Below, piece after piece: positions 9,954-10,865 of a stretch of DNA of 16,099 nt. The stretch spans positions 1 to 16,099 of IMG/VR virus record IMGVR_UViG_2563366820_000001, one strand, 5' to 3'. Below the pieces are notes generated by a model. The model did not search any database. It had not been told where the DNA came from and saw nothing but the letters and a program-made list of their open reading frames with translations. Within the stretch, counting starts at the first letter, position 1. Each line of letters opens with the position of its first letter. The position numbers and the translations under genes were made by a program. The stretch is from a virus (taxonomy: Duplodnaviria > Heunggongvirae > Uroviricota > Caudoviricetes).

Positions 9954-10505
9954 ATGGGGCAAAGCATGACTAAGCTGACCATTAACAGAAAACCTAAAGG
10001 CAATTACGGCACGCCGCAGAAAACGACGCAGGCGGCGCAGCAGCAGCAGCAGCAGGATAAAACCACATCGGCGCATAAAGTGATGCCCGGTAACCAGAAA
10101 GCGCAGCAGAAGCCCACAGGGGCGACACCGTGGCGGCATATGACCAAACGGCAGCGAAAAAACCGCAGACGCGTTAACCGCCTCACTGAGTTGTGGCCTG
10201 AATTATTCAGCCGGGAAGCACCGAAGCCGCTTAAGGTGGGGATATTCGACGACCTGATGCAGGATCTCGCCGTCAGGGGGCTGGCATTCGGGCCAGGGGC
10301 ATTACGTGCGACGCTGGCATCTTATGCGCAGTGTCCGCGCTATTACCGCGCCTTAATGGCTGGTGGGGTACGCTACGACCTGAAAGGCCAGCCGTGCGGC
10401 GAGGTGACACCACAGGAACAACAGGACGCAGAAACGCGGCTGGTGGCGCTGAATGAGAAGCGCAAACGTCAGCGCCGGGCAGCAAAGGAGAAAACAGGCG
10501 CATGA
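9954..10505 (+). CDS. FinO/ProQ-domain RNA chaperone with N-terminal basic/Gln-rich extension (alternative start ATG 9966)
   Basis: Segment PLKVGIFDDLMQDLAVRG...GALRATLASYAQCPRYYRALMAGGVRYDLKGQPCGEVTPQEQQDAETRL aligns well by eye with the E. coli ProQ FinO-like domain (PLKIGIFQDL...[47 protein letters not shown]), recalled from memory. Confidence 0.75.
   Translation: MGQSMTKLTINRKPKGNYGTPQKTTQAAQQQQQQDKTTSAHKVMPGNQKAQQKPTGATPWRHMTKRQRKNRRRVNRLTELWPELFSREAPKPLKVGIFDDLMQDLAVRGLAFGPGALRATLASYAQCPRYYRALMAGGVRYDLKGQPCGEVTPQEQQDAETRLVALNEKRKRQRRAAKEKTGA
10038..10055 (+). repeat. (CAG)6 trinucleotide tract encoding Q6 within the FinO-like gene
   Basis: cagcagcagcagcagcag read directly; in frame (AAQQQQQQDK). 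Confidence 0.9.
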
Positions 10506-10789
10506 TTCACGACAGTAAAGCCGAAGCACTGGAAGCGCGTGGTCTGTACCGGAGAGCGGCGGCGCGGTGGGCTGAGGTCATTATGCTGGCGAACGGTGAC
10601 AAGGCACGGGAACAGGCGGCAAAACGTCGAGCGGAATGTATCCACAAGGCAGCACGCCCGCCAGTAAGGCAGGATAATTTCGGGGAGATGCGCGAAACCA
10701 TCAGCCGGGCACATGCCGGGATGGGATTACATCAGCCCAATGGTGAGGCATTCAGGAAATACCCTAGATCGAAAAATTGCAATCAGTGA
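10502..10789 (+). CDS. PerC-like transcriptional regulator (95 aa), translationally coupled to the FinO-like gene (ATGA overlap)
   Basis: N-terminal motif SKAEALEARGLYRRAAARWAEVIM ... KRRAEC resembles the PerC/Pch family signature as I recall it; AAGGAG SD upstream. Confidence 0.45.
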   Translation: MIHDSKAEALEARGLYRRAAARWAEVIMLANGDKAREQAAKRRAECIHKAARPPVRQDNFGEMRETISRAHAGMGLHQPNGEAFRKYPRSKNCNQ

Positions 10790-10794
10790 CGGAG

Positions 10795-10818
10795 GCCGGG
10801 ATTTTTCCCGGCTTTTTT
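10795..10818 (+). terminator. Rho-independent terminator: GCCGGGA-tttt-TCCCGGC followed by TTTTTT
   Basis: 7-bp GC-rich perfect stem, 4-nt loop, 6-T run, immediately after the PerC-like stop codon. Confidence 0.7.
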
Positions 10819-10828
10819 GTGCCAGTAA

Positions 10829-10865
10829 AAAGCCCGCAGCCAGAAGTGTTGCGGGCTTTGTTTTT
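10829..10865 (+). terminator. Second tandem terminator: AAAGCCCGCA-n11-TGCGGGCTTT followed by GTTTTT
   Basis: 10-bp perfect inverted repeat with T-rich tail; the loop is rather long (11 nt). Confidence 0.55.

Follow-up and report, generated by a model that had tools for sequence, protein, structure and literature searches.

The stretch of DNA analysed here (16,099 nt, called the window throughout) carries a proA fragment and the tRNA-Thr gene thrW (1369..1444), followed in order by int, alpA, a primase gene, an iteron origin, a proQ-perC pair and a packaging module, with every gene from alpA on located on the same strand. An Rfam match to the int-alpA RNA sits between the integrase and AlpA, and the early block after the integrase encodes AlpA, AntA, a DUF4222 protein (6345..6659, 40% identical to RgdR, also known as ECs1581) and a D5-type primase. 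The integrase at an attachment site, alpA, the pri-rep gene followed by an iteron origin and the single coding strand reproduce the layout shown by Gram-negative phage-inducible chromosomal islands (PICIs) (PMC6092414). The packaging-type module encodes a DUF2213/protease-like protein and a TerS-like helix-turn-helix protein, which are the only phage-type genes identified in the window up to 16099, and it is followed downstream by a DUF4747 gene; PADLOC returned no match for the DUF4747 gene or the other downstream ORFs. The window holds no attR copy of the tRNA end, indicating that the element extends beyond 16099. DNA resembling 9400-11400 was present in 326 of 5,426 complete E. coli genomes, on the chromosome in every case, and among the matches listed each carries the RefSeq names 'ProQ/FINO family protein' and 'PerC family transcriptional regulator'. 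A megablast search with the same segment against phage and plasmid collections gave 0 matches, the element being chromosomal, and no genome matching 80% of the whole window was found, which points to a mosaic element. Additionally, Rfam searches over 8400-11300 (at gathering thresholds and at E up to 1) gave sub-threshold, hairpin-driven matches only and no known sRNA or leader.

An iteron-rich, AT-rich replication-origin region (9595..9950, no strand assigned) with GGTAGACAGTTGGTGGACAGTT-type repeats and several iteron families lies directly upstream of proQ, and its GC content (28-34%) differs sharply from that of proQ-perC (60%). The ProQ/FinO-family gene occupies 9954..10505 (+) and encodes 183 aa from the ATG at 9954, although an alternative start at ATG 9966 agrees with the RefSeq annotation of its homologues, which are named 'ProQ/FINO family protein'. 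The protein matches Pfam PF04352 (E 1.6e-23, 83.2 bits where the cut-off is 27), and over 106 aa it shares 34% identity with pMAR2 FinO. With the NCBIfam models for FinO and ProQ it scores 65 and 58 bits, under the respective cut-offs of 136 and 127, and judged by these scores it is no equivalog of either protein. The perC ORF (95 aa plus stop, 10502..10789, +) follows with an overlap that the first-pass annotation had reported and that was found at 10502-10505, where an ATGA combines the perC ATG (10502-10504) with the proQ TGA (10503-10505). A Shine-Dalgarno-like AAAGGAG (10484..10490, +) precedes the perC ATG by 11 nt and falls within the proQ coding sequence. The overlap of the two frames suggests that proQ and perC are translationally coupled. 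Such coupling to ProQ would not be obligatory, since perC is found without a neighbouring ProQ gene in EcCIMP1, in Sakai Sp7 and in Enterobacter and Kluyvera elements. Promoter-like sites also occur in the AT-rich origin upstream of the pair; proQ-perC may therefore have its own promoter inside the origin, in which case the so-called first transcription unit would comprise more than one unit. An origin-internal promoter would fit the low steady expression reported for the related gene pchE in E. coli O157 (PMC7369912).

The assignment of the 95-aa protein to the PerC family is strongly supported. The profile search that had been proposed as a check on this assignment gave a strong match to Pfam PF06069 (PerC; E 1.1e-31, 109.4 bits against a cut-off of 22.6), and the likeness, initially described for an N-terminal PerC/Pch-like motif, extends over the full length of the protein, residues 1-89 aligning end to end with profile positions 1-89 of 90. 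The N-terminal block itself (D4, E8, G14, Y16, R18, R22 and W23) is present and is invariant in an alignment of 67 sequences. A database search with the protein returned 134 homologues, with PF06069 in all 120 of those listed; the best of them, 95% identical, is named 'PerC family transcriptional regulator'. Identity reaches 43% over 87 aa with PerC (BfpW) of EPEC plasmid pMAR2 (E 3e-26), 45% with EcCIMP1_025, 51% with PchE of O157 Sakai and 66% with one protein labelled 'PchABC family' by NCBI. The size of 95 aa fits the family range of about 85-105 aa, and dN/dS values of 0.15-0.33 against six relatives denote purifying selection and hence a real gene under selection. No NCBIfam model matches the ORF, and a search of PDB sequences with a PerC profile yielded no relative of known structure. 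With the E limit raised to 1, Pfam gave PerC and a weak DUF6771 match only and no match to the ANR (AraC negative regulator) family, which is the placement proposed by Pick et al. for EcCIMP1_025. The AlphaFold model of the protein (pLDDT 79) has five helices, and the N-terminal 52 residues are modelled as a TPR-like three-helix unit, unlike a classical DNA-binding domain. The mode of action could therefore be protein-protein contact, and the model hints at such contacts over a classical DNA-binding domain. The truncated 54-aa allele P0107 (PchE by the label of one source) corresponds to the N-terminal TPR-like unit alone, whereas the PerC protein of the window retains the C-terminal half.

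Two GC-rich hairpins with T-runs follow perC, at the positions given by the first-pass annotation, and both are good candidates for intrinsic terminators, as predicted from the layout that they share (a GC-rich stem-loop, a T-run and a location downstream of a stop codon). Hairpin 1 (10795..10818, +), the candidate that would end the early proQ-perC unit, begins 6 nt past the perC stop and reads GGCCGGGA-TTTT-TCCCGGC, with a stem of 7-9 bp between G10795 and C10812, a loop of 4 nt and a T6 run at 10813-10818. The 41-nt segment containing it folds at -18.7 kcal/mol (z -3.8), a stability reached by 0 of 200 dinucleotide shuffles. Hairpin 2 (10829..10865, +) starts eleven bases past hairpin 1 and has the arms AAAGCCCGCAGCC...GTTGCGGGCTTT, which form a stem of 12 pairs (7 G-C) at 10829..10859, followed by a GTTTTT tail to 10865; with an A5 run upstream it has the appearance of a bidirectional terminator. 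Its folding energy is -20.9 kcal/mol on the + strand (z -4.3), which none of 200 dinucleotide shuffles matched, and -16.7 kcal/mol on the - strand (z -2.6). A first pattern scan missed hairpin 1 and a separate scan of our own listed both. In the pattern scan of 3700-16099, no + strand hairpin ahead of hairpin 2 exceeded 3 G-C pairs; from 3700 (upstream of alpA) up to that point, the + strand gave three weak matches of 3 G-C pairs, all within the primase gene. Hairpins 1 and 2 together are thus the first strong terminator-like sites on the + strand after alpA. An antisense sRNA ending at hairpin 2 was also considered and rejected, as there is no minus-strand promoter with at least 9 of 12 matching positions between 10866 and 11000, and the ORFs at 10713..10988 (+) and 10764..10943 (-) were read as spurious, because both run across the hairpins, where the DNA is mosaic and not conserved.

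Comparison with related loci separates the two hairpins. When 10700-11000 is compared with E. coli genomes, homology in many of them ends at about 10820-10837, between the hairpins, which means that they do not form one designed tandem unit; they belong to different mosaic modules, hairpin 1 belonging to the 3' end of the early operon and hairpin 2 lying at a recombination junction. Hairpin 1 is retained after perC in the loci L001, L037 (with a loop change), L038 and L040 (with a broken T-run), and it is found after ssb in satellite L041, which has no proQ-perC, with changes from G-C to G-U and from G-U to A-U. The pchE gene of Sakai Sp7 has a related downstream hairpin that lacks one of the G-C pairs and has a new loop. 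In L004 and L039 hairpin 1 has decayed, and this decay, together with the loss of the T-run in L040, indicates that termination at this spot is not indispensable. Hairpin 2 is variable: its upper stem differs in L038, L037 has a degenerate form, L041 has in its place an unrelated GC hairpin with an A8 run upstream, and L039, L040 and L004 have none. In several relatives the stretch from perC to the next conserved block contains at least one cargo gene, often a lipoprotein-like one, and the mosaicism of the hairpins and these inserted genes identify the end of perC as a module boundary and cargo slot. Upstream of this boundary, E. coli, E. ruysiae, E. albertii, Salmonella and Pantoea share the arrangement primase, (SSB), ProQ, PerC, in which the frames overlap. 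A perC gene that follows ssb with no ProQ gene is the arrangement of Enterobacter, Kluyvera, Atlantibacter and Sakai Sp7, in EcCIMP1 the perC-family gene also lacks an adjacent ProQ gene, and in lambdoid prophages perC is located between the lysis genes and Nu1. The genes c1499 and c1500 of EcCICFT073, considered as possible equivalents of proQ and perC, are actually capsid-like and decoration-like genes.

The promoter region of the packaging operon (10913..10964, +) contains two copies of a TTTCA-N5-TGCAA element at 10913-10927 and 10943-10957, 30 bp apart, and a promoter-like match of 9 of 12, the second copy being placed between a weak -35 (TCGTCA, 10937-10942) and a -10 (CATAAT, 10959-10964). 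It is followed by the first gene of the operon (10991..11164, +), which encodes a 57-aa protein with a ribbon-helix-helix-like fold. In Escherichia, Lonsdalea, Pantoea and Chimaeribacter loci and in EcCIMP1, the homologous small ORF is preceded at a distance of 27-70 nt by the pair of elements or by a single copy, and in the loci from the more distant of these genera TTTCA-N5-TGCAA adjoins a perfect TATAAT. In Erwinia (L019) and at another Pantoea locus (L018) the element lies similarly near a start codon, where the ORF filter recognised no homologue. The conservation of this control region across genera supports a separate transcription unit, which is probably regulated. The weight of the composite element rests on its conservation across loci and not on window statistics; the word TGCAAT taken by itself is not enriched, with 16 occurrences against 16.3 expected in the whole window. 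A sigma-54 reading of the element was discarded as the -24 GG is missing, and no LexA box is present at the late promoter of the window, though some relatives have one. The first-pass annotation had proposed that tandem terminators close a first transcription unit and insulate what follows; the separate, conserved downstream promoter fits this proposal, but the hairpins are not one tandem unit.

We consider it probable that the early gene block of a PICI-type satellite integrated at thrW has its 3' end at this locus, which would combine a coupled proQ-perC pair, an anti-silencing PerC protein, termination at a hairpin and a separate packaging operon. The early block (regulation and replication) of the satellite, which lies beside proA, would end with proQ-perC, and a single mRNA would give rise to an RNA-binding protein with a ProQ/FinO domain and to a PerC-family protein. 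Its kinship to PerC and Pch suggests that the 95-aa protein is a small helical regulator. Pch activates LEE1 through relief of H-NS/StpA/Hha/YdgT silencing (PMC4764244), and the PerC-family protein of the window would most likely loosen the silencing complexes that H-NS, StpA and Hha form on horizontally acquired, AT-rich DNA. It may act in trans on host loci such as the LEE, curli and flagella genes in a host-dependent manner, with the AT-rich DNA of the satellite itself as a possible further target. Since the anti-silencing role is drawn from homology, both the target and the sign of the effect would most likely depend on the host, and an element-to-host regulatory output is plausible only by analogy. 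Transcription of proQ-perC would most likely stop at hairpin 1, hairpin 2 being a backup at the recombination junction, and the packaging operon would start from its own promoter, probably regulated, with the two TTTCA-N5-TGCAA elements as presumed sites of binding.

Membership in PF06069 could also be read more narrowly, the ORF being a dedicated LEE1/ler activator like EPEC PerC or EHEC PchA/B/C and thus a satellite-delivered virulence switch for attaching-and-effacing hosts. The identities of 43% to PerC and 66% to the 'PchABC family' protein, as well as the C-terminal half that the truncated P0107 lacks, are consistent with such a switch, and some PICI-coded PerC homologues are stated to activate the LEE (Fillol-Salom et al., PMC6092414). 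However, EcCIMP1_025 represses LEE1 in C. rodentium (Pick et al. 2025, PMC11773190), and the PerC-like genes of EcCIEDL933 and EcCICFT073 are reported there to leave LEE1 fusions unaffected. Given these inconsistent effects of PICI-borne homologues, 'activator' may be the wrong word. The family moreover occupies the same satellite position in Salmonella, Pantoea, Erwinia, Lonsdalea and Enterobacter, genera that are not known to harbor the LEE, and a dedicated LEE activator seems to us quite unlikely. Another possibility is that the pair serves the life cycle of the satellite and is not cargo, PerC counter-silencing or activating the satellite's AT-rich origin or late promoter and the ProQ-like protein binding the terminator hairpin at the 3' end of satellite RNAs. 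The position between origin and packaging operon, fixed across genera, argues for this, and so does base composition, proQ-perC being an island of 60% GC amid regions of 28-39% GC of the AT-rich kind that H-NS prefers; hairpin 2 likewise shows the layout of A-run, stem and U-tail preferred by FinO domains. Against it, satellite L041 has the same late-promoter motif and hairpin 1 terminator without proQ-perC, the ProQ partner is often missing, and pchE expression is reported to fall on induction of prophage elements (PMC7369912), the opposite of the behaviour of a late-gene activator. A life-cycle role of this kind is improbable. It is equally doubtful that proQ-perC is a translationally coupled core module of enterobacterial phage satellites and not virulence cargo; on that reading a TPR-like PerC would loosen H-NS-type silencing within the satellite, and any influence on the LEE, curli or flagella would be a by-product of a satellite-serving function.

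A further alternative concerns the hairpins and not the proteins: they could act as sites of regulated pausing or read-through, for instance through antitermination, serve as 3' structures that stabilise RNA, or be scars of recombination, with the early and packaging genes forming one long transcript on induction. All genes from alpA on share a strand, hairpin 2 is variable and lies exactly at the mosaic junction, and the -35 predicted for the downstream promoter is weak, all of which would agree with read-through. Both hairpins nevertheless have canonical GC-rich stems and T-runs, the structure of hairpin 1 is kept by pairing-preserving changes in distant satellites, and conservation across genera extends to the downstream promoter region, so that we regard a single long transcript as rather unlikely and favor termination, most likely at hairpin 1, ahead of a separately transcribed packaging operon.

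The gene is an ordinary, already annotated PerC-family regulator, and its recognition in the window is correct but a rediscovery; novelty is low because RefSeq annotates the pair and PICI-borne PerC genes are already in the literature. Fillol-Salom et al. (2018) described PerC alleles on some E. coli PICIs and RgdR on all E. coli PICIs analysed (PMC6092414), and a 2026 survey lists perC and proQ among the accessory genes of Enterobacter satellites. The additions made here are modest, namely the placement of the hairpins in different modules, the conserved late promoter with its ribbon-helix-helix-like gene and the TPR-like model of PerC. The locus thus has little importance past correct annotation, while the comparative picture is of modest value: the boundary at the end of perC and hairpin 1 and the conserved late promoter offer handles on late-gene timing in Gram-negative satellites, and they are relevant to the question of which partner, satellite or host, PerC and ProQ work for.

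Among known systems, PchE (ECs_1588) of E. coli O157:H7 is located on Sp7 (O-island 51), the capsid-forming PICI EcCIEDL933. It is a PerC-family protein of 90 aa, 51% identical to the window protein, and its gene is the last one ahead of the satellite packaging module, with a similar GC hairpin and T7 after it. Unlike the window, pchE directly follows ssb with no ProQ/FinO gene, and Sp7 has its own capsid genes. PchE reportedly represses curli and raises flagellar gene expression (PMC7369912). EcCIMP1 of E. coli MP1 shares the proA/thrW site, the int, alpA, antA and primase layout and a perC-family gene upstream of the same small ribbon-helix-helix-like ORF with TTTCA-N5-TGCAA; it differs in that EcCIMP1_025 is only 45% identical and has no neighbouring ProQ, and its late promoter carries a LexA-box-like CTGT-N8-ACAG that is not present in the window. 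EPEC PerC (BfpW, EAF plasmid pMAR2), the founder of PF06069, shares the N-terminal KAE-LE--G-YRRAA-RW block, but it is the plasmid-borne third gene of perABC, sits beside an AraC-type regulator instead of ProQ and is a proven LEE1 activator. The PchA/B/C-type proteins of lambdoid prophages belong to the same family, and prophage-borne P0062 is 63-64% identical to the window protein; their genes, however, are part of a full prophage, flanked by the lysis cassette and by the Nu1/terminase genes, lack a ProQ partner and are followed by a terminator of unrelated sequence. Finally, the FinO of F-like plasmids and ProQ have the FinO domain in common with the upstream partner of perC, which differs from them in its scores under the NCBIfam FinO/ProQ cut-offs and in its location on a satellite, beside perC.

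In L041, a related satellite that lacks proQ-perC, a short stretch reading AACGAGTGACAGAAGCCGGG (L041 positions 1500-1535) separates the stop codon of ssb from hairpin 1, the candidate terminator that in the window lies just 3' of perC (10795..10818, + strand); this stretch is similar to the final perC codons plus the perC terminator. The resemblance suggests that L041 once lost proQ-perC by deletion or recombined exactly at the perC end. A second regulator-family protein is encoded just 5' of the primase gene, where a DUF4222 protein (window 6345-6659) shares 40% identity with RgdR (ECs1581), a PICI-borne regulator with a reported effect on the LEE and motility; the window therefore holds both families of PICI regulators, RgdR-like and PerC.

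Directly after the integrase stop, the Rfam int-alpA RNA motif (window 2869-2936; 48.4 bits against a gathering score of 35.8) overlaps the start of a 283-aa ORF (2872..3723), and four ACCCTWAGGGTA-like palindromes follow upstream of alpA (3740-3880) as candidate operators of its promoter; the alpA promoter of EcCICFT073, another PICI, is reported to be autoactivated. Between primase and proQ (8408-9950) there are three distinct iteron families, GGTAGAYA (~8420-8730), AAAAGTGGGGAG (~9130-9530) and GGTAGACAGTTGGTGGACAGTT (~9595-9950), together with a 115-aa ORF (8784..9131) that matches a PHROG family (465 aa) over the C-terminal quarter only, and the region looks like an origin mosaic that retains part of a further replication gene. 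What looks like a cargo pair occupies the satellite's distal end (14607-16099): a DUF4747 gene (Pfam E 9.5e-98) and a second ORF, whose start the DUF4747 gene overlaps and which continues beyond the window end; PADLOC returned no match for either.

Upstream of the packaging-operon start, a TTTCA-N5-TGCAA element is found in the window (10913-10964) and in related loci L001, L002 (EcCIMP1), L004, L013, L016-L019 (L018 and L019 being from Pantoea and Erwinia respectively), L037, L040 and L041, with satellites of at least five genera carrying it at this position. The element is frequently doubled, with copies 30 bp apart and adjoining the -10, and in most loci compared its 3' neighbour is a 57-aa ribbon-helix-helix-like ORF (window 10991-11164); it is a putative operator controlling the late genes. 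The corresponding late-promoter position of the window (10960-10990) has no LexA-box-like CTGT-N8-ACAG, a site present in perfect form immediately 3' of the late-promoter -10 in some related satellites: EcCIMP1 (17960-17975), L013 (3970-3985), L015 (2277-2292) and L016 (4020-4035). Operon I of the SaPIs is LexA-controlled, and it is this control that the site at the late promoter of those satellites calls to mind.
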